DNA of 64,000 nucleotides from a virus (lineage: Duplodnaviria > Caudoviricetes). A program made the translations under genes and the position numbers. The notes beneath the pieces were generated by a model. That model ran no database searches, was not told the DNA's origin, and saw only the letters and a program-made list of their open reading frames with translations. The stretch lies in the IMG/VR virus record IMGVR_UViG_3300024331_000007, positions 64,001 to 128,000 of that record; one strand, written 5' to 3'. This document shows, in pieces, positions 1,219 to 38,067 of the stretch (positions are counted from its first letter, which is position 1; every line of letters starts with the position of its first letter).

Positions 1219-1725
1219 TTATGCTTGAAAATCTATGATTGGAGTAATTTTAGGAGCTTTATTTTTACCATATAATCTTTTGTTTTCTTTTTGCTGCGCT
1301 ATTGCCGCTACTTTCCGTGCTTCTCTTTCTTCGGATGTAAACTCTCCTCTTAGTTTTTGAACACGAACACCAATTATTCGTTGTCCCTTACGTCGATCTT
1401 CATAAACGTTAGAAAACGATGATAAAACCGAATCTAAGTTACCTTTTGGATACACTCGTGCTGATTCTGGTAAAAATCTAAAAAGTTTTTCAGCTTCATT
1501 ATCAATAAAACTAAACCATTCCCCGTTTACTTGGCAATATCTATACTTGTCGTGCAATTCCTTCTCTAGGGTATTATGATCTACCGCTCGCCAAACGCCG
1601 ATAATTTCTATTTTGAATGGAAGTAGAATACCGAGGTCTTTGATCCGAATTTCAGGTGTTCTTGACTTACCGATTTTGTACCATCTAAAAACTTTTGTTC
1701 CAATTAGATAAACGTAACCAGCCAT
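1219..1725 (-). CDS. GIY-YIG superfamily nuclease, T5orf172/MUG113-like
   Basis: YVYLIG...YKIGKS...LEKELH...NGEWF. Confidence 0.75.
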   Translation of the reverse strand: MAGYVYLIGTKVFRWYKIGKSRTPEIRIKDLGILLPFKIEIIGVWRAVDHNTLEKELHDKYRYCQVNGEWFSFIDNEAEKLFRFLPESARVYPKGNLDSVLSSFSNVYEDRRKGQRIIGVRVQKLRGEFTSEEREARKVAAIAQQKENKRLYGKNKAPKITPIIDFQA

Positions 1726-1779
1726 ATTTCCTCTTTAAAGTAATTTTTATAGATTAACATATACAACACACCTAGTCAA

Positions 1780-1806
1780 TAAAAAACGCATCCCGAAGGA
1801 TGCGTC
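1780..1806 (-). terminator. Intrinsic terminator
   Basis: Minus strand ACGCATCC-TTCG-GGATGCGT followed by a T run. Confidence 0.75.
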
Positions 1807-1982
1807 TTTGGATAAAATGAATTTTGGTTAGACGTGAATGGCGTTTCTGAACACAATTGCAAATACACATAACCAAATAAATGTTTGATAATATTACACC
1901 AAAGCAGACCACTTTTGCCACAAAGAATAGAAATGATAGCTACAACAAGATAGGTCATTGCAAATCCTTTCAAATCTTGAAA

Positions 1983-2273
1983 TTAGTCGCAGAGACTAAC
2001 TGAGCAGTTAATGATGAGCTTTTTAGCTGTGGTATCAACGTGGCTTACACGATCAGAATTAGAGGCACGAAGACGAGACTGTAGACTTTGGCTTTTGGTG
2101 CAGTGCTTACTGGCGTAAAAAGCCGCAATAATGGCCTCAGACACGGCAGGAGTAATATCGCCAGCATAGGCAATGTCAATGCTGTCCTGCCAATCATCTG
2201 TCCAAGCATGCTGCCTGTAAGAGCCTTCAACTTGCGTCCTAGTTGCCGTCAGGAGTTTTCCACCGAATGCCAT
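1983..2273 (-). CDS. Hypothetical early protein (start revised to MAFGGK)
   Basis: GAGAGGAA SD and a sigma70-like promoter directly upstream of ATG 2273. Confidence 0.7.
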   Translation of the reverse strand: MAFGGKLLTATRTQVEGSYRQHAWTDDWQDSIDIAYAGDITPAVSEAIIAAFYASKHCTKSQSLQSRLRASNSDRVSHVDTTAKKLIINCSVSLCD

Positions 2274-2298
2274 ATTGTTTCCTCTCACCAACAAATCT

Positions 2299-2327
2299 AG
2301 TATACCAAACTTCCGAATAAGAGTCAA
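2299..2327 (-). promoter_or_regulatory. Sigma70-like early promoter
   Basis: TTGACT-17 nt-TATACT with extended -10 TG. Confidence 0.8.
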
Positions 2328-2526
2328 GCAGAAAACGAAAATAGTTAGGTTAGACTCGAAAAATGGCTTCTGCAAGTTGTTGATTCCATTGGTTGAAAAA
2401 ATCTGTTTTGACTATTTTTTGATGGTTAAGGGTTTTTGACGTATCCTTGCTTGCTCAGCGTAATTATAAATTTGATAAATCCTTTAAAATGATGGAGTTG
2501 CAGGCAAAAATAACCAAAAATAGTTG

Positions 2527-2555
2527 TTGACGGCAACACGAAAATTTGGTATACT
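2527..2555 (+). promoter_or_regulatory. Sigma70-like early promoter of the small-ORF array operon
   Basis: TTGACG (2527-2532)-17 nt-TATACT (2550-2555), extended -10 TG; ATG 6 nt downstream with no SD. Confidence 0.8.
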
Positions 2556-2561
2556 TATTAC

Positions 2562-2903
2562 ATGGTTGAGAAAGACAAAACGACTGTGAAGCGCAAAAAG
2601 CGCACCGACCGTACTCACATCATCTATCGCCTTGCTGTTGCGAATATGGAGTACATTGGAATCACCGCCAAAACTCAATCGACGGTTTTGAAGTCTGTCC
2701 GTCTTCGTTTCGCGAAGCATGCAGAACGTGCCAGAAACGAAAACAAGCCGTGGCCTCTTTACAAGGCAATTAGGAAGTTTGGAATTGACCAGTTTGAACT
2801 GGAAATCGTTGAAATTCTCCGTGGCAAGGCTGCTGCTCATGCTCGCGAAGTTGAGCTAATCAAGGTTCGCAATCCCAAACTTAATCTGGCGAGTGCAAAA
2901 TGA
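2562..2903 (+). CDS. Small GIY-YIG nuclease-like protein, first gene of the array operon
   Basis: HIIY...YIGIT...RFAKH...LYKAIRKFG...REVELI...LN pattern. Confidence 0.7.
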   Translation: MVEKDKTTVKRKKRTDRTHIIYRLAVANMEYIGITAKTQSTVLKSVRLRFAKHAERARNENKPWPLYKAIRKFGIDQFELEIVEILRGKAAAHAREVELIKVRNPKLNLASAK

Positions 2904-3115
2904 AAGTTGGCGATTGTGGTTGGGTAAAAATTCATGCTGACATGACTCAGAAATCTTTTGGTCAGATTGTCACTATTGTAACGGGTGGTGCTGTTACTGT
3001 TTTTCTTGTTCGATCTTCTTACCATCACGGCGCAATTGCTCCTTATTTTGAGGACGAGTTTGAATTGATAGAAAATGAAGGCGAAGCAATGGCTTTACTT
3101 TTGGAGTATGCATGA
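2900..3115 (+). CDS. Array member 1, SH3/KOW-like (MKVGD) with tail GEAMALLLEYA
   Basis: ATGA overlaps at both ends; shared tail. Confidence 0.8.
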   Translation: MKVGDCGWVKIHADMTQKSFGQIVTIVTGGAVTVFLVRSSYHHGAIAPYFEDEFELIENEGEAMALLLEYA

Positions 3116-3366
3116 TAGATAAAAATGGTCATGCGCTATCTATCGGTGATTGGGTAAAGTTCCGTCCCTCCGAAAAATTCCAAATCTATTTTGGAGAAAT
3201 TGTCGGAACGTGGCAGGGTCAAGAGTTCAATAAAGTTGGCGTGTGCGTTCGTGTTATTAATTATCCTCACCCACCTCAAAAAGATGGAACTTGGCATATG
3301 TATGATGCTTCCATGACATTCTTGACCAAAGAGCAATTATTGTTGGAACTTTTGGAGAACGCATGA
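3112..3366 (+). CDS. Array member 2, YopX-like start (DKNG...IGDWV) with tail KEQLLLELLENA
   Basis: SD GGAG inside previous tail; ATGA overlap. Confidence 0.8.
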   Translation: MIDKNGHALSIGDWVKFRPSEKFQIYFGEIVGTWQGQEFNKVGVCVRVINYPHPPQKDGTWHMYDASMTFLTKEQLLLELLENA

Positions 3367-3587
3367 CTGAGTGGCAGGGTTTTGAACTTCCAGATGGATC
3401 ATTGATTCGGTATCGTGACAATGGCGACGAACGTATTGGATCGATATTCACTAATATGTATCACCAGAAACAATTTTTAGACATAAACCCAAAAGCCAAA
3501 ATGTCAAATTGGAACATATCGCAATGGGAAATGTATTCAATAGCAACAGAAGCCGACGCAATGCTTTATTTGTTGGAGAACGTATGA
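3363..3587 (+). CDS. Array member 3, LPxG type, tail TEADAMLYLLENV
   Basis: ATGA overlap; shared tail. Confidence 0.8.
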   Translation: MTEWQGFELPDGSLIRYRDNGDERIGSIFTNMYHQKQFLDINPKAKMSNWNISQWEMYSIATEADAMLYLLENV

Positions 3588-3814
3588 CGAGCGCAGAATT
3601 TAAATCGCTGAAGCCGAATATGATTGTCTATCATGTTGAGGGAGGCAAAAAGGTTTTCGGTCATGTGTCTGCGATATATCGCGCCTATCCAAACCTTTTA
3701 GGTTTCAGTAGATTTAAAGATGCGTGGGCATCTTGGATTCCAATAGACGATCCAAAAGATTTTCATATGGCATCAGAAGCCGAATCTTTTTTGTGGAAGC
3801 TGGAGAACGCATGA
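3584..3814 (+). CDS. Array member 4 (start revised to MTSAEF), tail SEAESFLWKLENA
   Basis: ATG at 3584 overlaps previous TGA after GGAG. Confidence 0.8.
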   Translation: MTSAEFKSLKPNMIVYHVEGGKKVFGHVSAIYRAYPNLLGFSRFKDAWASWIPIDDPKDFHMASEAESFLWKLENA

Positions 3815-4047
3815 GCACATTGATTGGTCAAGATCGTAACGGACAATTGGTTGAGGTTGGCGATATTGTTCTGGTCATAGATCAGGAGATTCCAATTGAA
3901 TTGGCAGTCATTCTTGATTTTCAGTATCCATTTACGGACCCGATTGTTCTAAAATTTGCAGATGGTTCTGAAGTTCATAGGCAATCGGCAGAAATTGAGA
4001 AGGTTTCAAATGAAAAAGCTGTGTTGTGGAAGCTGGAGAATCTATGA
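3811..4047 (+). CDS. Array member 5 (start revised to MSTLIG), YopX-like DRNG...VGDIV, tail SNEKAVLWKLENL
   Basis: ATGA overlap after GGAG. Confidence 0.8.
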   Translation: MSTLIGQDRNGQLVEVGDIVLVIDQEIPIELAVILDFQYPFTDPIVLKFADGSEVHRQSAEIEKVSNEKAVLWKLENL

Positions 4048-4262
4048 TTAACCTTAATATGCTCCCAGATGGAACACTCCTTTGGTACGAACAAAACGAA
4101 GACAAGATTTTGGGAACATATTCCAAGAACACTGGCGAGTTTGTTGTTAGAGGGGTAGTTGATTCTCGTACAAATGATGCGTGGCCTATCAGGAATTTAT
4201 CAATGTATCGTATTGCGACTGAATCAGAAGAGATGATGTTGTACATGTTGGAGAACGCATGA
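4044..4262 (+). CDS. Array member 6 (start revised to MINLNM), LPDG type, tail TESEEMMLYMLENA
   Basis: ATGA overlap after GGAG. Confidence 0.8.
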   Translation: MINLNMLPDGTLLWYEQNEDKILGTYSKNTGEFVVRGVVDSRTNDAWPIRNLSMYRIATESEEMMLYMLENA

Positions 4263-4438
4263 ATCTACTTGGACGAATCGTACTGGACATTTTCGTGTTT
4301 GGGTTTCCTGTGCTTGCCATCGTTGGATTTGCCGCAGGCTGGAGAATTGTGAAAGTCGGCGGGCCAAAATTTGATCGTGAAGTGAAAGACTTTTTCACGT
4401 CCAAGGAAAAGTTGATGCTCAGAAAGTTGGAGTCATGA
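4259..4438 (+). CDS. Array member 7, 59 aa single-pass membrane protein with tail SKEKLMLRKLES
   Basis: Hand translation MNLLGRIVLDIFVFGFPVLAIVGFAAGWRIVKVGGPKFDREVKDFFTSKEKLMLRKLES; below the ORF track cutoff; ATGA overlaps at both ends. Confidence 0.8.
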   Translation: MNLLGRIVLDIFVFGFPVLAIVGFAAGWRIVKVGGPKFDREVKDFFTSKEKLMLRKLES

Positions 4439-4641
4439 ATATTGGTGATTACGTTAGGGTGCATTTGGAAACCGAGGCGAGGATTCGTGTTGGACGTATA
4501 GAAGAAATTGAAAAATACAGTGAATGCGCGTTTCCATATTACGTTCGATTCTCCGCCAGCAGAACTTGCTCTTGCTCGCGGAATGAACTAGAGATAATGT
4601 CTGAAGCTGAAGCAATGCTATACATGTTGGAGAACGTATGA
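4435..4641 (+). CDS. Array member 8, KOW/SH3-like (MNIGDYV), tail SEAEAMLYMLENV
   Basis: Clear paralog of 5650-5859. Confidence 0.85.
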   Translation: MNIGDYVRVHLETEARIRVGRIEEIEKYSECAFPYYVRFSASRTCSCSRNELEIMSEAEAMLYMLENV

Positions 4642-4829
4642 AGATCGGTGATTTGGTTTACGTATTGTTAGACCACAAACATCCAGTTGTGGGGGAAATT
4701 ATTTCCCTTGAGCCTGAGATTCGACTGAGGAATCTGTATGGACGAGAAGCTCCGTTGTTCTCTACAAGAGATACAATTAGGTTATTGACAGACGGCGAAG
4801 CGATGCTCTACAAACTGGAGAACGCATGA
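4638..4829 (+). CDS. Array member 9, KOW/SH3-like (MKIGDLV), tail TDGEAMLYKLENA
   Basis: ATGA overlap; shared tail. Confidence 0.85.
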   Translation: MKIGDLVYVLLDHKHPVVGEIISLEPEIRLRNLYGREAPLFSTRDTIRLLTDGEAMLYKLENA

Positions 4830-5020
4830 ATCCGAAGATTGGAGATTTTGTTCGAATTAAACAAACTGGAGAAGTTGGGCTTATTGTTAATTTGTTTCCA
4901 AAGGCCCGATACCCATTTTTGATTAATACTCAATCTATTGGTAATAACATGTATATGGAACGTGAGTTTCAATTTGCCACAAACGAAGAGGCCATGTTAT
5001 ACAAACTGGAGAACGCATGA
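4826..5020 (+). CDS. Array member 10, KOW/SH3-like (KIGDFV), tail TNEEAMLYKLENA
   Basis: ATGA overlap; shared tail. Confidence 0.85.
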   Translation: MNPKIGDFVRIKQTGEVGLIVNLFPKARYPFLINTQSIGNNMYMEREFQFATNEEAMLYKLENA

Positions 5021-5241
5021 AAAGAAAAACAAAGGTCGGTGACATAATTAGATTGTCATTCGCAGATTCGTCCATACTGCCAAGAATCGGACAGGTTGTT
5101 GATAAGAGAAAAACATTTTTCATCGTTGAAATTAATAAATGGAGATGGCTTGTAAAGCATACCGCTTATGGAGGGAAAAGATATTACATTACTCATTTGA
5201 CGGACGAAGAGGCGATGTTGTACAAGTTGGAGGATGCATAA
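5017..5241 (+). CDS. Array member 11, KOW/SH3-like (KVGDII), tail TDEEAMLYKLEDA
   Basis: ATGA overlap at start, TAATG overlap at end. Confidence 0.85.
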   Translation: MKRKTKVGDIIRLSFADSSILPRIGQVVDKRKTFFIVEINKWRWLVKHTAYGGKRYYITHLTDEEAMLYKLEDA

Positions 5242-5417
5242 TGTTTAAGGTCGGTGATTACGTTCGAATTTTGACGGGGCCGCGAAAAGGTATGATCGGT
5301 GAAATAACATCCACATATGGAAGTGGTATGTATGTTCATCCATTCTACATGTATCCATTCGAAGTCGAATACGTTTCACCCGAAGAAGCAATGGTCTACA
5401 AACTGGAGAACGCATGA
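5241..5417 (+). CDS. Array member 12 (start revised to MFKVGD), KOW motif protein, tail SPEEAMVYKLENA
   Basis: VGDYVRILTGPRKGMIGEI is a canonical KOW motif. Confidence 0.85.
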   Translation: MFKVGDYVRILTGPRKGMIGEITSTYGSGMYVHPFYMYPFEVEYVSPEEAMVYKLENA

Positions 5418-5653
5418 GGAAAGAAGACGGACTTGCGTTGCCAGAGGGAACGTTTTTATTTTACGATAATCCTCGTCTTGGAAGAAGTTGGTACGGTACT
5501 CTTCGTTTTGAGAGAGATCAGTATGGACAGATTGAGCCTTCGTTCGAATGGACGAGGAACGGTGATAAAAAATTCTGGCCGTTGAGGGCATGGAAATTAT
5601 ATCGTCTCGCCACTGATGAAGAAGTTATGCTATACCTTTTGGAGAACGCATGA
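5414..5653 (+). CDS. Array member 13, LPEG type, tail TDEEVMLYLLENA
   Basis: ATGA overlap; shared tail. Confidence 0.85.
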   Translation: MRKEDGLALPEGTFLFYDNPRLGRSWYGTLRFERDQYGQIEPSFEWTRNGDKKFWPLRAWKLYRLATDEEVMLYLLENA

Positions 5654-5859
5654 AGATTGGTGATTACGTCAAAGTCAAGCTGGAAATTTCCAAGCAGGTT
5701 CGAGTTGGCCGCATTGACTGTATTTTGAATAGTGGACTCTTTCATGAATATCCGATTCGTGTTGCATTTCCAGATGCAAAATTTTGTTCATGTACTCGGA
5801 ATGAAGTGAAGATTATCTCAAATGAAGAAGCAATGCTTTGGATGTTGGAGAACGCATGA
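5650..5859 (+). CDS. Array member 14, KOW/SH3-like (MKIGDYV), tail SNEEAMLWMLENA
   Basis: Paralog of 4435-4641 (VRVGRI...CSCxRNE). Confidence 0.85.
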   Translation: MKIGDYVKVKLEISKQVRVGRIDCILNSGLFHEYPIRVAFPDAKFCSCTRNEVKIISNEEAMLWMLENA

Positions 5860-6089
5860 AAGAAATAGATGCCAAGCAGCTTCCAAAAGATGCTACAATT
5901 TTTTATAATCAGGGTGGTCGTAGCAGAGCTTTTGGTTATATAGAGAAAAAAGATGGAGTATTCTATTTCATTCCAGCGTATTTTAGAGATAGCGATGTCG
6001 ATTTAAATCGATGGCGCATTTCTGCATGGTATGCCTACGAAGTAATGTCCACAGAAGAATTTGTTCTTTGGAGATTGGAGAACGCATGA
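5856..6089 (+). CDS. Array member 15 (start revised to MKEIDA), LP type, tail STEEFVLWRLENA
   Basis: ATGA overlap after GGAG. Confidence 0.8.
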   Translation: MKEIDAKQLPKDATIFYNQGGRSRAFGYIEKKDGVFYFIPAYFRDSDVDLNRWRISAWYAYEVMSTEEFVLWRLENA

Positions 6090-6295
6090 CATTCGATGAT
6101 ATGTGTGAACTCGAAGAAGGCACTGTTTTGTGGTGTGAAAATACTAATTGCCCTATACTTGGAAAATTGCATTTTCATAACGGCAACGAGCCGATGTTTC
6201 AACACAATTCAGTGGGATGGCTGATCAGAGATGCACATTTATATTCAGTTGCCACCGACGAAGAGGCCATGTTATACACATTGGAGAACGCATGA
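6086..6295 (+). CDS. Array member 16 (start revised to MTFDDM), LEEGT type, tail TDEEAMLYTLENA
   Basis: ATGA overlap after GGAG. Confidence 0.8.
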   Translation: MTFDDMCELEEGTVLWCENTNCPILGKLHFHNGNEPMFQHNSVGWLIRDAHLYSVATDEEAMLYTLENA

Positions 6296-6513
6296 CAAAG
6301 GAAGAAATTTGGAGTCTCCCCTCAGGATCATATCTCTGTTGTACAAATATGTTTGGTGATGCAAGGTTTGGACGGATTCGAAAGAGAAAAGATGCAAGAA
6401 TCTTTCATACTTTGACAGGGGATAGCAAGCCATTGTCATTTAAAATTAGCAGATTTGATTATTATCGCGTAGCTTCAAAAGAAGAATACGTTCTGTGGAG
6501 ACTTGAACGATGA
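6292..6513 (+). CDS. Array member 17 (start revised to MTKEEI), LPSG type, tail SKEEYVLWRLER
   Basis: ATGA overlap after GGAG. Confidence 0.8.
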   Translation: MTKEEIWSLPSGSYLCCTNMFGDARFGRIRKRKDARIFHTLTGDSKPLSFKISRFDYYRVASKEEYVLWRLER

Positions 6514-6959
6514 CTAAATCTCCGCTGGATTTTGAAACCATCGAGGAAGCCGAAGAGTTTATTCGAGGAGTTGAGGATTTAAATTTTCTTCCTGAAGATT
6601 TACAAATCATAGCTGTACTCGGCGATCATCATAGTTATGAAAAAATCGTTAATCCAACCGAAAAGGTTAAGTTGGCTGCTGTAATGGGGTTTGGTCGGAA
6701 TATTTTCTTCATGAAAGACCCCAGCGAAGAAATTTGTCAAACAGCGGTTTCAAATGATGGAGATGTAATCAAGTACATCAAGAATCCATCGCTGGAAACG
6801 CAACTCATCGCTGTTGCTAAAAGACCGTTGGCAATTGCATGGCTCAAAAATCCATGTGAGGAAGTTCAACTTGCGGCTATACACAAAGACAGCCGCGTGA
6901 TTGCTCACATAAATAATCCAACCGAAAATGCATTGATGTTGGCCAAACTAATAAACTAA
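6510..6959 (+). CDS. Helical repeat protein, DUF4116-like; last gene of the array operon
   Basis: Repeats of the form NP[ST]ExxQLxAV...xxIxyIxN. Confidence 0.65.
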   Translation: MTKSPLDFETIEEAEEFIRGVEDLNFLPEDLQIIAVLGDHHSYEKIVNPTEKVKLAAVMGFGRNIFFMKDPSEEICQTAVSNDGDVIKYIKNPSLETQLIAVAKRPLAIAWLKNPCEEVQLAAIHKDSRVIAHINNPTENALMLAKLIN

Positions 6960-6997
6960 AAATGCTCCCTAAACTCAATCAGTTTAGGGAGCATTTT
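6959..6997. terminator. Probable bidirectional terminator
   Basis: Perfect 14 bp inverted repeat AATGCTCCCTAAAC / GTTTAGGGAGCATT between convergent genes. Confidence 0.8.
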
Positions 6998-7012
6998 CGG
7001 TTTATGTGCTAG

Positions 7013-7558
7013 TTACTTGTTTCTAACAAATCTAGTAATTCCTAACTTGGAAAGAGCTTCCTGAACCATTTTAGTTTGACGAATGCAATCCTCAATGGAA
7101 TCGTGTGTGGCTTCTGGCGCTTCGATGTAAACCAAATCCAGTAATGTGCGGCTATCTCTTACCGCTCCATAACCCCAAGGAACTCCCTTACCGTATTCTG
7201 CAAAGATGTGAGTCAGTAGGGTAATATCCAGCGTCGGGCCTTGGCACCAAATTCTATTCTTCTGCCAGCAAAATTTAATGAGACTATCCAATGCTTCTGG
7301 TACTGGAACACGTCCTACATCATTGAAAATTTTCGCTTGTACTTCTGGCGAGCGCATAGTCCACCACCAACACGTATCGTCATCCTGACTTCTATGAGCC
7401 TGTTCGTCAAGGGACAGAAGCAAATCCAATTTTGGGTTTGTTGTAAAATCAGTAGTGATTTCAAATGGGTTGAACGCAATCGCAGAAATGCTCAAAATCT
7501 GGGCGTCGGGTTTTACGCCCATTGTTTCTATATCAATAGTTATATCAGTGAAGTTCAT
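7013..7558 (-). CDS. DEDDh 3'-5' exonuclease (Rv2179c / exonuclease VIII-like)
   Basis: IDIET, WCQGPTLD, RDSRT, HDSIEDC motifs. Confidence 0.8.
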   Translation of the reverse strand: MNFTDITIDIETMGVKPDAQILSISAIAFNPFEITTDFTTNPKLDLLLSLDEQAHRSQDDDTCWWWTMRSPEVQAKIFNDVGRVPVPEALDSLIKFCWQKNRIWCQGPTLDITLLTHIFAEYGKGVPWGYGAVRDSRTLLDLVYIEAPEATHDSIEDCIRQTKMVQEALSKLGITRFVRNK

Positions 7559-7572
7559 ATAACGATTATGAA

Positions 7573-8514
7573 TCAAACAAAGTTTGTTGTCAATTGATAA
7601 TATAGAAATTTCTCAAGTAGAACTGGAATGGTTTTATGGTCCCAATACGGAATGATAAGCAGAGGAATATTATTTTTAATACAATATGTTTCTTTGATTT
7701 TATCGCGCTCCTGAATTTGGCGAAACATTTCATCATCAGAAACAGATTTGCTGCCAAAATTGAATTTATCATAATGCTGTTTGCCATGAAATTCAATCAT
7801 CCCGCACAACTTTCCATTGCGAAATAATCCGAAATCGAATGGTAGTGTATTGACATTACGGCAATTCTTTATTCGATACTGTGGCTGAAACGAAATGCCT
7901 AATCTTTCTAGTTCTCTCCTAATTGATCGTTCGCCTTTAGATTCTCTACACGTAGGGCATCCTTGCCCATTTAGATGCGCGGATGGTTCTTGTTTGAAGT
8001 CTCCGTGCTTAGGACATACAATTAGAACTTTAGTATGCATATCAACGTAGACGCATTTTTCATATGAAAATTTTGAATTGTGTTTTTTATTACCTCTATC
8101 GATGAATATCGGCAGTGTCAATTTATCGTCGCGTCTTGCGCAAATCAGACACCCATATCCTTGTAAATGCGCCGTTGCTTCTTGCTTGAAATCTCCGTGA
8201 TCTGGGCAAGTTATGATTACAGAATTATTAGAGCCTGTGTAAGATGTTCTTTCGTAAGTAAATTTATAATGATGAGTTTTTCTTGCCTTCTCTATAAATT
8301 CTTGATTACTCATCTTTGAAGTTCCGCCGCATTTTGGACAACCTTGACCATTGATATGATTCTTTGGAAGTTGCCAGAAATCTCCGTGGGTCGGACAACC
8401 AATACAAATTTTGGTGTGATTATTGAGATAGACTACTTTATCGTAATTGTGTTTGTTCCGATGGGTAGGTTCTATCGACCCAATAAATTTTTGTAAGTTT
8501 GATCTACTAATCAT
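7573..8514 (-). CDS. Free-standing endonuclease: CxxHG/GCxxC zinc repeats plus C-terminal PD-(D/E)XK (Vsr/DUF559-like) domain
   Basis: Three CPxHGDFxQ...HxxGxGCxxC repeats; LPFDF...IEFHGKQHY...RDKIK...IPYW. Confidence 0.8.
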   Translation of the reverse strand: MISRSNLQKFIGSIEPTHRNKHNYDKVVYLNNHTKICIGCPTHGDFWQLPKNHINGQGCPKCGGTSKMSNQEFIEKARKTHHYKFTYERTSYTGSNNSVIITCPDHGDFKQEATAHLQGYGCLICARRDDKLTLPIFIDRGNKKHNSKFSYEKCVYVDMHTKVLIVCPKHGDFKQEPSAHLNGQGCPTCRESKGERSIRRELERLGISFQPQYRIKNCRNVNTLPFDFGLFRNGKLCGMIEFHGKQHYDKFNFGSKSVSDDEMFRQIQERDKIKETYCIKNNIPLLIIPYWDHKTIPVLLEKFLYYQLTTNFV

Positions 8515-9713: not shown

Positions 9714-10490
9714 ATGCCAGAAGAAATCAAAGGAAACGTTGTAGACCTTAATAAGCTCAAAAACAACCTATTCGACTATATCAAGCTGCGTTTGGGCGAC
9801 AAAATGGTTGAGGTTGAATTGGACCCTGAGCATTATGAGAATGCATTGACTCGTGCGGTTGAAGTGTTCCAAACTCGTAGTTCTGCGGCAGTTGAGGAGA
9901 GTTTTGCCTTTCTAAAAACCCAAAAAGATGTGCAGGTTTATACCCTTCCAGAAGAAATTCAGTATGTTCGTCAACTTTGGCGTCGTAATTTGGGTGATAT
10001 CGGAAACGCTGGCTCCCAGATTGATCCATTCAGCCAAGGATATTTGAATGTCTACATTTTGAATAGTGGACGTTCGGGTGGATTGCTCAACTATGAATTG
10101 TTCAAAGACTACGAATTTCAGGTTGATCGTATGTTTGGGGGTCAGATTGATTTCAACTTCAATTCGATTACTAAGAAACTTACTTTGATTCGTAAGACAT
10201 ATGGCAACGGTGAAACTATTCTGATGCAGACATACAACTTGAAACCATTGGTTCAGTTGCTTGTTGACTATCGTTCTCTCACTTTTATCAAAGAATATGC
10301 ATACTGCCTCGCAAAGCACTCTTTGGGAGAGGCTCGTGAGAAGTTTGGATCAATACCGGGACCGGGAGGCGGAACGACTCTCAATGGTGCTGCGCTCAAG
10401 GCAGAAGCAATGGCTGAAATGGATAAATTACACGAAGATATTTCGAATTTCCGATTTGGCGAAACTCCAACTGCATTTATTATTGGATAA
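9714..10490 (+). CDS. Neck / head-tail adaptor, T4 gp13-like (start revised to MPEEIK)
   Basis: YIKLRLGDKMVEVELDPEH, IKEYAYCLAKHSLGEAREKFGSIPGPGGGTTLNG; SD GGAG at 9705. Confidence 0.8.
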   Translation: MPEEIKGNVVDLNKLKNNLFDYIKLRLGDKMVEVELDPEHYENALTRAVEVFQTRSSAAVEESFAFLKTQKDVQVYTLPEEIQYVRQLWRRNLGDIGNAGSQIDPFSQGYLNVYILNSGRSGGLLNYELFKDYEFQVDRMFGGQIDFNFNSITKKLTLIRKTYGNGETILMQTYNLKPLVQLLVDYRSLTFIKEYAYCLAKHSLGEAREKFGSIPGPGGGTTLNGAALKAEAMAEMDKLHEDISNFRFGETPTAFIIG

Positions 10491-10534
10491 TGCTTGCAAT
10501 CAATTTCGTCTCATAGTAGACTAGGAACATATTC

Positions 10535-11128: not shown

Positions 11129-11782
11129 ATGATTATTGGTTTGAATGGCCTCATTGGGTCTGGAAAGGGCGCGGCATCGGATTATCTGCAAACAAAACAT
11201 AACTTCCAACATCTTAGTTTTGCAGATTCGTTAAAACATGCAGTTTCGGCGATTTTTGGTTGGTCGTTTGAAATGTTAAAGGGAGCGACACCTGAAAGTC
11301 GCGCATGGCGTGAGCAAATTGATCCGTGGTGGGCCAATAGGCTTAACATTCCTGACCTTACACCTCGTTGGATTCTACAACAATGGGGAACAGAAGTGGG
11401 CCGTCGCAGTTTTCATCCTGATATTTGGGTAGCAGCCCTCGAAAACAAGATTGTAAATTCGATAGGCGATTTTGTTATTGACGATTGCCGTTTTGCCAAC
11501 GAAATGGATATTATCCGTAAAAATAACGGAGCACTAGTTCGTATCAATCGCGGAGCATTGCCAGAGTGGTATGGAACTGCACTCAGTCAGTTGTCTCTTC
11601 AGAACGTTTATGGCAATGATCCAGATTATGTTGATGTGATGGCAACAAAATACCCCGATGTTCACGTAAGCGAATGGGGATGGGTTAACCAGCCTTTTAA
11701 CTATGAAGTGGAAAACAACGGAACACTGAAAGAATTACACGCCAAACTGGATGAAATCGTCGAAACCGAAGCGACCAAATAA
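11129..11782 (+). CDS. Deoxynucleoside monophosphate kinase, T4 gp1-like
   Basis: GLIGSGKG P-loop, SFADSLK, LQQWGTEVGR, DDCRFANE, HVSEW. Confidence 0.9.
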   Translation: MIIGLNGLIGSGKGAASDYLQTKHNFQHLSFADSLKHAVSAIFGWSFEMLKGATPESRAWREQIDPWWANRLNIPDLTPRWILQQWGTEVGRRSFHPDIWVAALENKIVNSIGDFVIDDCRFANEMDIIRKNNGALVRINRGALPEWYGTALSQLSLQNVYGNDPDYVDVMATKYPDVHVSEWGWVNQPFNYEVENNGTLKELHAKLDEIVETEATK

Positions 11783-37008: not shown

Positions 37009-38067
37009 TTATTCCGCGACAATTGCAGATACTGGCGCAACAATGATCTTTTCCTCGTCAAATTCCTTCATAATCTTGTCAAGGATTCCGTCTTTGTTGG
37101 TGAGATATTCTTTACGCCAATACTTGTGCGCTTCACCGTTTACGTCAGTGTATACATAACGATTGCCTTCTTTCACAATCGTCTTGTATTGTTCGAACAA
37201 CTCAAAGAGTCCAGAATAAGGGTCCATTCCAGTTGCATATGGAATCCTTACTTCCATTGTTTCAAAAGGCTTGTTGTATCGCGACTTCATAATCTTGCAA
37301 CCAGCGCGAATACCCAAAACTTCTGATCCCTTGACTCCCTCTTCGTCTTCCTTCAATTTCAATGGCTTCATTGCAACTACGATACTGCTTGCAAAAACGA
37401 AGCCTGAACCACCGCTGACAATTGCATCTGGATTGTATGGGTCTTGGCTTGCATATGTGTGATTCGTCGCAACCAAACCTATATTCAATTCTCCAAACAT
37501 ATTGACGCAATTGGTAACAAGAGCCTTCAACTGCTTGGCCTTGATACCCATATCGCCCTTCATGTTGCCAGATTCGAATTGTTCAACGCTTGTGGGCGAG
37601 AGAAGCATACCCAAACTATCCACAACGAATAGAACGAGTGGTCTTTCCTCTTCTGGAATTTCTTTGTACTCCTTGACGAAATCGCTGACTAGCTTGGCAA
37701 CATCATTTGTCATTGACATGCTAAGTTTAAGCATTTTTTCTTCGCTCGTATCAACACCGAATGCCTGTAGCCAAGGCTCGTCCAAGGCGTTTTCGGTATC
37801 AACAAGGATAACAAAGATACCCAAATCCTGTGCGTTCTTTACAATGTTTCCACTGACGATCAAACTCTTTCCTGATGCTGGTTCTCCTGCGAAAACTGTT
37901 ACCTTTCCAAGAGGAACGCCAGCGTCAAAGCGTCCAGAGATTCGATAGTTCAGTGCGTAATTACCAGTCGAAATCCAAACATCTGGATCGTGGAAACCAA
38001 TGCTAATTCCGTCAATACTTTTTGTAATGGTACGTCTAAATTTTGAAACATCAAACGGCTTCGCCAT
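37009..38067 (-). CDS. uvsX: RecA-like recombinase UvsX
   Basis: GEPASGKS, DTENA, VVDSLGML, ATNHTY, SGGSG. Confidence 0.95.
   Translation of the reverse strand: MAKPFDVSKFRRTITKSIDGISIGFHDPDVWISTGNYALNYRISGRFDAGVPLGKVTVFAGEPASGKSLIVSGNIVKNAQDLGIFVILVDTENALDEPWLQAFGVDTSEEKMLKLSMSMTNDVAKLVSDFVKEYKEIPEEERPLVLFVVDSLGMLLSPTSVEQFESGNMKGDMGIKAKQLKALVTNCVNMFGELNIGLVATNHTYASQDPYNPDAIVSGGSGFVFASSIVVAMKPLKLKEDEEGVKGSEVLGIRAGCKIMKSRYNKPFETMEVRIPYATGMDPYSGLFELFEQYKTIVKEGNRYVYTDVNGEAHKYWRKEYLTNKDGILDKIMKEFDEEKIIVAPVSAIVAE

Follow-up and report, generated by a model that had tools for sequence, protein, structure and literature searches.

In the 64,000-nucleotide (nt) window analysed here, which comprises bases 64,001–128,000 of the single-contig virus record IMGVR_UViG_3300024331_000007, 17 consecutive small genes (g0 to g16) are joined end to end by one short repeated element, which we call the seam. 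The record carries T4-like genes, and the window has a GC content of 0.415. From comparison of its sequence with that of relatives, we consider it probable that the seam is the composite joint of a single coupled operon of 17 mini-genes, whose units are shuffled by exchange at the seam and at the C-terminal tail that it encodes.

A repeated seam at 17 consecutive gene borders

The 15-mer YTGGAGAACGCATGA occurs as ten exact copies in the 64-kb window, all on the plus strand between positions 3352 and 6295. No copy arose in 100 shuffles (chance expectation 0), and the 359,890-base-pair (bp) genome holds no further exact copy beyond the ten in the array. A search tolerating up to three mismatches revealed extra seams at 3101, 3573, 4033, 4627 and 5227, and two others are one codon shorter (4427–4438, TTGGAGTCATGA; 6502–6513, CTTGAACGATGA), giving a total of 17 seams (10 exact and 7 variant), one per border from g0/g1 to that between g16 and the 149-amino-acid (aa) gene behind it. 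A preliminary description of this DNA had reported ten exact and seven variant copies, one at each gene boundary, and the pattern count, the mismatch-tolerant search and inspection of the borders all agree with it.

The exact 15-mer comprises four codons, L-E-N-A, with which a conserved C-terminal helix closes, and the TGA stop. The G of the Leu codon together with GAG creates GGAG, located 5 nt before the next start, and the A of GCA together with TGA creates the ATGA stop/start overlap. A Leu codon ending in G and Glu encoded as GAG are needed for GGAG, and Ala encoded as GCA is needed for the A of ATG; only two positions of the 15-mer are free, one opening the Leu codon and one closing the Asn codon. 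The former is occupied by T in 11 units and by C in 5, and the codon before Leu varies in both residue and third base. A stop/start overlap is present at 17 of 17 borders (ATGA at 16, TAATG at 1) and also at the border between the GIY-YIG gene and g0. The spacing from GGAG to ATG is 5 nt in the 14 ATGA seams of the four-codon (LExx) register, 8 nt in the TAATG seam between g10 and g11, and 2 nt in the short seam between g6 and g7; the short seam between g16 and the 149-aa gene has no GGAG. All seams lie inside coding sequence, and the array is devoid of intergenic space. Read base by base, the seam is a composite of tail end, ribosome site and stop/start overlap, and translational coupling of the units is predicted. 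The earlier attribution of GGAG and CATGA to a Shine–Dalgarno sequence and a stop/start overlap thus stands, both signals being laid over the last codons of the common tail.

The operon runs from a promoter-like site through a 113-aa GIY-YIG gene, the 17 genes of 58–84 codons and the 149-aa gene to a two-way hairpin. Its features are as follows (window positions).

2527–2555, plus strand: sigma-70-like promoter candidate (TTGACG, 17 nt, TATACT, with a TG extension), the best score in 1700–7200
2562–2903, plus strand: GIY-YIG endonuclease-like gene, 113 aa, head of the operon (Pfam PF01541); its stop overlaps the g0 start (ATGA)
2900–3115, plus strand: g0, 71 aa, tail ..LLLEYA; variant seam 3101–3115, TAT for AAC
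3112–3366, plus strand: g1, 84 aa, barrel type; exact seam 3352–3366
3363–3587, plus strand: g2, 74 aa, second body type; ENV variant seam (GTA) 3573–3587
3584–3814, plus strand: g3, 76 aa; exact seam 3800–3814
3811–4047, plus strand: g4, 78 aa; ENL variant seam 4033–4047, with the only seam AAT of the array, followed by CTA
4044–4262, plus strand: g5, 72 aa, second body type; exact seam 4248–4262
4259–4438, plus strand: g6, 59 aa, membrane helix, tail ..MLRKLES; short seam 4427–4438
4435–4641, plus strand: g7, 68 aa, barrel, paralog of g13; ENV variant seam 4627–4641
4638–4829, plus strand: g8, 63 aa, barrel; exact seam 4815–4829
4826–5020, plus strand: g9, 64 aa, barrel; exact seam 5006–5020
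5017–5241, plus strand: g10, 74 aa, tail ..KLEDA; TAATG-overlap seam 5227–5243
5241–5417, plus strand: g11, 58 aa, barrel; exact seam 5403–5417
5414–5653, plus strand: g12, 79 aa, second body type; exact seam 5639–5653
5650–5859, plus strand: g13, 69 aa, SH3-like barrel and helix in the model; exact seam 5845–5859
5856–6089, plus strand: g14, 77 aa, second body type; exact seam 6075–6089
6086–6295, plus strand: g15, 69 aa, second body type; exact seam 6281–6295
6292–6513, plus strand: g16, 73 aa, tail ..WRLER; short seam 6502–6513
6510–6959, plus strand: 149-aa repeat protein, end of the operon, no tail; I-K-N-P-S/T..Q-L-A-A-type repeats
6959–6997, no strand: terminator candidate, a near-perfect 17–18-bp hairpin with T runs on both strands, at the boundary between the array and a convergent exonuclease gene

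Promoter-like sites numbered 11 against 13.2 expected, none of them at a seam, and the single strong hairpin is that at 6959–6997 after the last gene, with none at the seams. The operon has one promoter-like site at its head (2527–2555) and one terminator-like hairpin, both of which are consensus matches only.

A common C-terminal tail on at least three kinds of body

The tail of every unit is ..EEAML[YW]xLENA or a close variant of it. The bodies that carry this common helix are 15–35% identical and belong to at least three kinds, namely an SH3-like barrel, a second soluble type and a membrane helix (g6); g7 and g13 form a paralog pair (46% identical). None of the units scored above threshold against Pfam or PHROGs, in the manner of ORFans. 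In the model of g13 (50 relatives), a five-strand SH3-like barrel is accompanied by a C-terminal helix that spans residues 58–68, with a predicted local distance difference test (pLDDT) value of 89. Its fold matches generic SH3-like proteins such as PsaE, Tudor and the ferredoxin-thioredoxin reductase variable chain, with template modelling (TM) scores of 0.6–0.7.

A profile search of 1.84 billion cluster representatives yielded 173 matches, more than 130 of which are proteins of 60–90 residues aligned end to end. The small proteins of the family end in ..AMLWKLEN followed by nothing or by A, L, S or V (LEN 32, LENA 31, LENL 13, LENS 8, LENV 7); the last residue can be any that NNA encodes, in keeping with a third base set by the A of ATGA. 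Since the family is present in more than 130 metagenomic protein clusters, the tail peptide is under selection. About 90 open frames with related tails are found elsewhere in the genome. The codons upstream of LENA vary freely, with four codons used for Ala and five for Leu. Homogenisation of this upstream part of the tail in the window was considered and rejected, the synonymous sites matching codon usage (167 shared codons versus 153 ± 14, P = 0.17).

One set of such frames forms a sister array outside the window (G000:C1:255700-256900, minus strand) with tails of the form ..EEAMLWKLEN[ALVS]. Its seams have GAA as frequently as GAG, and CTA besides TTG, and are far less uniform than those of the array studied here, whose LENA-register seam has the greatest uniformity in the genome. 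A metagenomic protein of 142 aa (P0146) consists of two fused units, the degenerate tail of the first (..IIYRLAQ) running straight into a second barrel unit; judged from its sequence, this looks like a seam that has lost its stop. Called proteins of the family often start with M/L-[ED]-x-G-E-[RSF]-M, which is the upstream seam read in the downstream frame, and these N-termini are therefore start-codon artefacts. They were seen in P0026, P0044, P0055, P0084, P0085, P0100 and P0106 and in the window frames at 3724, 4026, 5838, 6011 and 6217. The residue after G-E in such N-termini reports the upstream Asn codon, with R standing for AAC before G and C for AAT GC.

Gain, loss and replacement of units between seams

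Close relatives of the array are rare. The INPHARED phage records held no match in either DNA or protein, and IMG/VR held none to three codon-degenerate patterns for the tail. A single pattern scan of metagenomes returned seven chance matches and no arrays, and a word-index protein search with the unit alignment retrieved the window's own proteins only. A search for relatives through the 149-aa gene gave one distant repeat-domain match (contig L001) with no array, and a search through the exonuclease gene gave none.

The contigs that could be compared differ from the window by whole units. In a 547-bp ENA contig (ERZ27252313), the orthologs of g11 (P0010, 90% identical, positions 21–197) and g13 (P0002, 81%, positions 194–403) adjoin with a 4-nt overlap, and g12 is absent. 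The same g11–g13 order without g12, as judged by gene lengths and cluster membership, is found in a 1130-bp JGI contig (3300075153; g11 ortholog P0011), where the neighbouring genes of 65 and 69 aa are unlike g10 and g14 in size. A 911-bp contig (L009) contains, in order, the tail of g5, g6, a second membrane unit, another barrel unit, g10 and g11. Its homology with the window (~85–90%) ends at the g6 ATGA and resumes at the seam before g10, so that two other units stand in place of g7–g9. The DNA identity then rises from ~68% in g10 to ~88% in g11, with the step at their seam; the g10 ortholog is 56% identical as a protein, and its seam reads AAC GCA TAATG.

A further relative, L014, has the same GC content as the window. 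Its GIY-YIG gene and closing gene (11160–11612) show 92% and 71% protein identity, respectively, to those of the window, and 19 units lie between them. Only g2, g4, g6, g8 and g16 have orthologs there, located at 8512 (g8, 55%), 9097 (g2, 50%), 9536 (g4, 77%, also with AAT) and 10945 (g16, 48%), besides that of g6. The order differs, with the g8 ortholog preceding that of g2, and blastn blocks end at seams. L014 joins mostly different units and uses 11 exact copies of the same 15-mer, and its orthologous DNA is 75–85% identical to the window.

Orthologs of g6 occur in L009, L010, L011 and L014, and g15 has a relative (P0020) that is 47% identical. The extra membrane unit found in L009 and L014 is flanked by 18–20-nt direct repeats of the KLES seam and is absent here. 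In L014 it was missed by the gene caller: P0169, a 52-aa membrane unit ending in ..MLRKLES, occupies 10372–10530 between the g6 ortholog and the next unit. An overlapping 73-aa frame was called from 10461 instead, and the real next unit starts at 10527. In L011 and L012 one common unit stands behind different neighbours, the homology beginning at ATGA, and still other sets of units lie between the same flanks in L010, L011 and two further contigs. The GIY-YIG gene is 80–92% identical in L010, L011 and L014, while the array behind it differs.

We looked in the relatives for fixed gene content and order, or for breakpoints outside the repeat, either of which would have spoken against the crossover idea of the preliminary description, and found neither: homology blocks end at seams, and the insertions, deletions and replacements in the contigs compared are bounded by the seam.

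The flanks of the array also vary. A radical-SAM gene (282–284 aa) lies between the GIY-YIG gene and the array in two JGI contigs (3300050821, 8639 bp; 3300075153, 3846 bp) and is absent from the window, L010, L011 and L014. The GIY-YIG gene overlaps g0 by ATGA here, and in the relatives it is followed by a short spacer with its own ribosome site. On the far side of the array, at 7013–8514, an Rv2179c-like exonuclease gene and a DUF723/treble-clef gene occupy the minus strand in the window. Both are on the strand of the array in L010 and L014, as is the exonuclease gene in L012, and the orientation of a 382-aa gene is unchanged, a pattern that suggests a local inversion or re-insertion. The repeats of the 149-aa gene also form the end of a 400-aa protein of L001 (9113–10315), a distant T4-like contig.

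Sharing among neighbouring seams

Signs that seams are copied at the DNA level come from several comparisons that do not involve the Asn codon bias. Seams that adjoin resemble each other more than pairs drawn at random (P = 0.007 here with a 21-nt window; 0.02–0.04 in L014), and adjacent bodies have no detectable similarity. Two neighbouring units of L014 with unrelated bodies have 21 nt in common across a rare seam that differs by two amino acids (..KLVYA), and a second rare 21-mer (..ENL and the first codons of the next gene) is common to another neighbouring pair. Two further L014 units without body similarity have a 33-nt identical tail that includes a rare Met-to-Leu change (best pair P = 0.003). 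The likeness of neighbours would fit concerted evolution of a tandem family; against it, orthologous units carry the same seam type in 3 of 3 pairs, and in the window Leu and Lys lack homogenisation at their first and third bases, respectively. GAG is used in 15 of the 16 ATGA seams here versus 11 of 33 other tailed ATGA junctions of the genome, and by hand count in 5 of 11 junctions of the same register elsewhere in the genome. The 50-nt tails of g9 and g15, which are 90% identical, were examined as a sign of copying and dropped (P = 0.13 after correction for the number of pairs).

The asparagine codon of the seam

As the preliminary description had noted, the Asn codon of the seam is nearly always AAC, in 12 of 13 seams versus 12 of 43 Asn codons (28%) in the array bodies (Fisher, 5e-5). 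The genome-wide share of AAC is 0.40, or 0.37 before a codon starting with G. In this phage, L009 and L014 taken together, the choice follows a context rule: the codon is AAC wherever the next base is G (25 of 25; 12, 2 and 11, respectively) and AAT wherever it is not (4 of 4; 1, 1 and 2). The g5 seam of L009 changed both bases together, from AAC GCA to AAT ACA. With AAT in front of G, another ATG would arise 4 nt upstream of the real start, and ATG is mildly depleted before starts (41 versus 63–116 for permuted triplets).

Avoidance of a second ATG as a universal rule was ruled out. L011 and L012, with 31–34% GC, have AAT GCA TGA in 5 of 5 such seams, L010 has AAT GCA in two TAATG seams, and the window itself keeps T before G in a TAT GCA and a GAT GCA seam. 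A separate TAC bias in the tail was also discarded, being mostly codon context (TAC before A, 0.56 genome-wide).

The earlier inference that the AAC bias implies DNA-level homogenisation does not hold as it was argued, the bias resting on a single free nucleotide and the context rule fitting equally well. Homogenisation is likewise not seen at the free sites nearby, where Leu has 11 T to 5 C at its first base and Lys is divided 3 to 3 at its third. Because the AAC bias follows the context rule, it does not decide between copying and weak selection: near-fixed AAC may be either a by-product of seam copying or the result of weak selection against a second AUG, and the data fit both.

Proposed exchange and its alternatives

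Tyrosine and serine recombinases were sought across the 360-kb genome and not found, and PF00589, which matched in all control genomes, is absent from it; the genome-wide searches thereby extend an observation made earlier for the window. Of the two recombination genes that had been placed in the window, UvsX is represented by a RecA/UvsX-like gene at 37225–37974 on the minus strand, and UvsY is unconfirmed, since searches for the UvsY and RegB families gave no match anywhere, controls included, and were uninformative.

There is no intergenic DNA in the array and the bodies are unrelated, and the tail and seam are therefore the sole stretch in which one unit can align with another in register. 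Exchange at this stretch, homologous or driven by microhomology, would delete, insert, replace or move whole units, each exchange re-creating the tail, the ribosome site and the overlap. The route could be UvsX-type recombination, or template switching between 14–21-nt direct repeats, whether inside a single genome or between genomes that infect a cell together. Neighbouring seams might be kept alike by these exchanges too, or by short conversion patches. We entertain, with more doubt than belief, the further step that the seam is an evolved self-homogenising recombination module, a coding-embedded counterpart of the promoter-early stem-loop (PeSL) cassettes discussed below. Such a module would let co-infecting jumbo phages trade tagged mini-genes via UvsX-type recombination, possibly as one-unit circles, a prospect we advance just as tentatively.

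Several points weigh against shuffling by exchange at the seam. We infer exchange from the comparison of sequences, and three informative contigs were compared without their DNA. Breakpoints at gene borders are also left behind by selection for intact genes, and differential loss from a larger ancestral array could mimic both replacement and reordering. With regard to the seam itself, the AAC bias obeys the context rule and need not reflect copying, and in 3 of the genome's 4 non-tail ATGA junctions C precedes G. Neither Leu at its first base nor Lys at its third is homogenised in the window, and the synonymous sites of the tail fit codon usage. The P values for adjacency are modest and come from trials of several window sizes.

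Function alone is one alternative. It holds that the repeat is kept for the tail, the ribosome site and the overlap, that illegitimate breaks fall anywhere and selection retains those at gene borders, and that AAC is kept to avoid a second AUG before the coupled start. All but two bases of the 15-mer indeed have a coding or initiation reason. The strict pairing of AAC with a following G and of AAT with other bases in this lineage, the double change in the g5 seam of L009, the lean to C before G in non-tail ATGA junctions, the mild depletion of ATG upstream of starts and the lack of homogenisation at tail synonymous sites all agree with it. However, random breaks would almost never restore an in-frame tail and ATGA, yet every new adjacency seen has both. 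The TAT GCA and GAT GCA seams of the window and the AAT GCA seams of L011, L012 and L010 run counter to the avoidance of a second AUG. Constraint cannot explain the rare double-variant seams that neighbouring units of L014 have in common, and the seams are spatially autocorrelated. We consider function alone an unlikely account of the array.

Recent tandem duplication, in which the identical seams belong to duplicates that have not yet diverged, would fit the tandem arrangement of same-sized units with identical seams and the g7/g13 paralog pair. It is already contradicted by bodies that are 15–35% identical and of at least three unrelated types. Moreover, the synonymous sites of the conserved tail are saturated, and L014, at 75–85% identity in orthologous DNA, joins mostly different units by the same seam, making a young array very improbable. 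That the seam is the target of a site-specific recombinase, like an integron attC, is less credible still: promoterless one-gene units behind one promoter-like site do resemble integron cassettes, but the genome yielded no tyrosine or serine recombinase, and the seam is a 15-nt direct repeat within coding sequence with no inverted-repeat arms visible in the sequence.

Comparison with known systems

PeSLs are mobile regulatory cassettes of T4-type phages (Arbiol et al. 2010, PMC2839356; Comeau et al. 2014, PMC4122927). These intergenic elements of ~100 bp contain a sigma-70 promoter and a terminator hairpin; the insertions, deletions and replacements that set close relatives apart end at them, and they give rise to mini-circles (PMC2839356, PMC4122927). 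The array resembles them in that a repeated short element flanks small non-essential genes in a variable region of a T4-like genome and bounds the insertions, deletions and replacements that distinguish close relatives. As with PeSLs, there is no dedicated recombinase, and the element brings expression signals with it, so that every recombinant is viable. In contrast to PeSLs, the seam has neither promoter nor hairpin; it is coding, 14–21 nt of exact repeat within ~45 nt of tail-coding similarity, and supplies a peptide tail, a ribosome site and an overlap. By this analogy, the seam appears to work like a PeSL but is not one, and PeSLs are the nearest described system.

Integron arrays consist of one-gene promoterless units behind one promoter, for which the present array has a candidate, and as here their content and order vary between relatives. 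Unlike them, the array has no IntI-type integrase and no attC-like folded site, and its units have a common protein tail and are predicted to be translationally coupled. Coupling through ATGA or TAATG overlaps, with the downstream Shine–Dalgarno sequence inside the upstream gene, is established in phage and bacterial operons; here the predicted coupling signal is also the constant end of a portable tail, at 17 consecutive borders. In phage T4, rII studies reported deletions and duplications between short direct repeats, events that are sporadic and usually destructive. The 14–21-nt repeats of the array, spaced 180–250 nt apart, are of the kind reported as substrates, and the extra membrane unit with its 20-nt flanking repeat fits such an event, whereas the position of every repeat here is such that a functional operon results.

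Shuffling of units at the seam would carry the principle of PeSLs, recombination at repeated expression signals in the variable regions of T4-type phages, over to a coding repeat that doubles as a protein tag. It would also explain how a giant phage has a fast-changing library of ~60–90-residue proteins with one docking-like helix, in a single operon and without an integrase. On the practical side, gene callers start many genes of this family too early, within the seam (N-termini M-E-x-G-E-R-M), and can hide units such as that at L014 10372–10530. Of the cassette-crossover idea in the preliminary description, the function of the seam and the turnover at seams have held up and the argument from AAC homogenisation has not, and, with PeSL cassettes already described, the idea is less new than it had implied. 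The novelty of the array is moderate; phage shuffling elements are known, and the seam would be one that lies within coding sequence.

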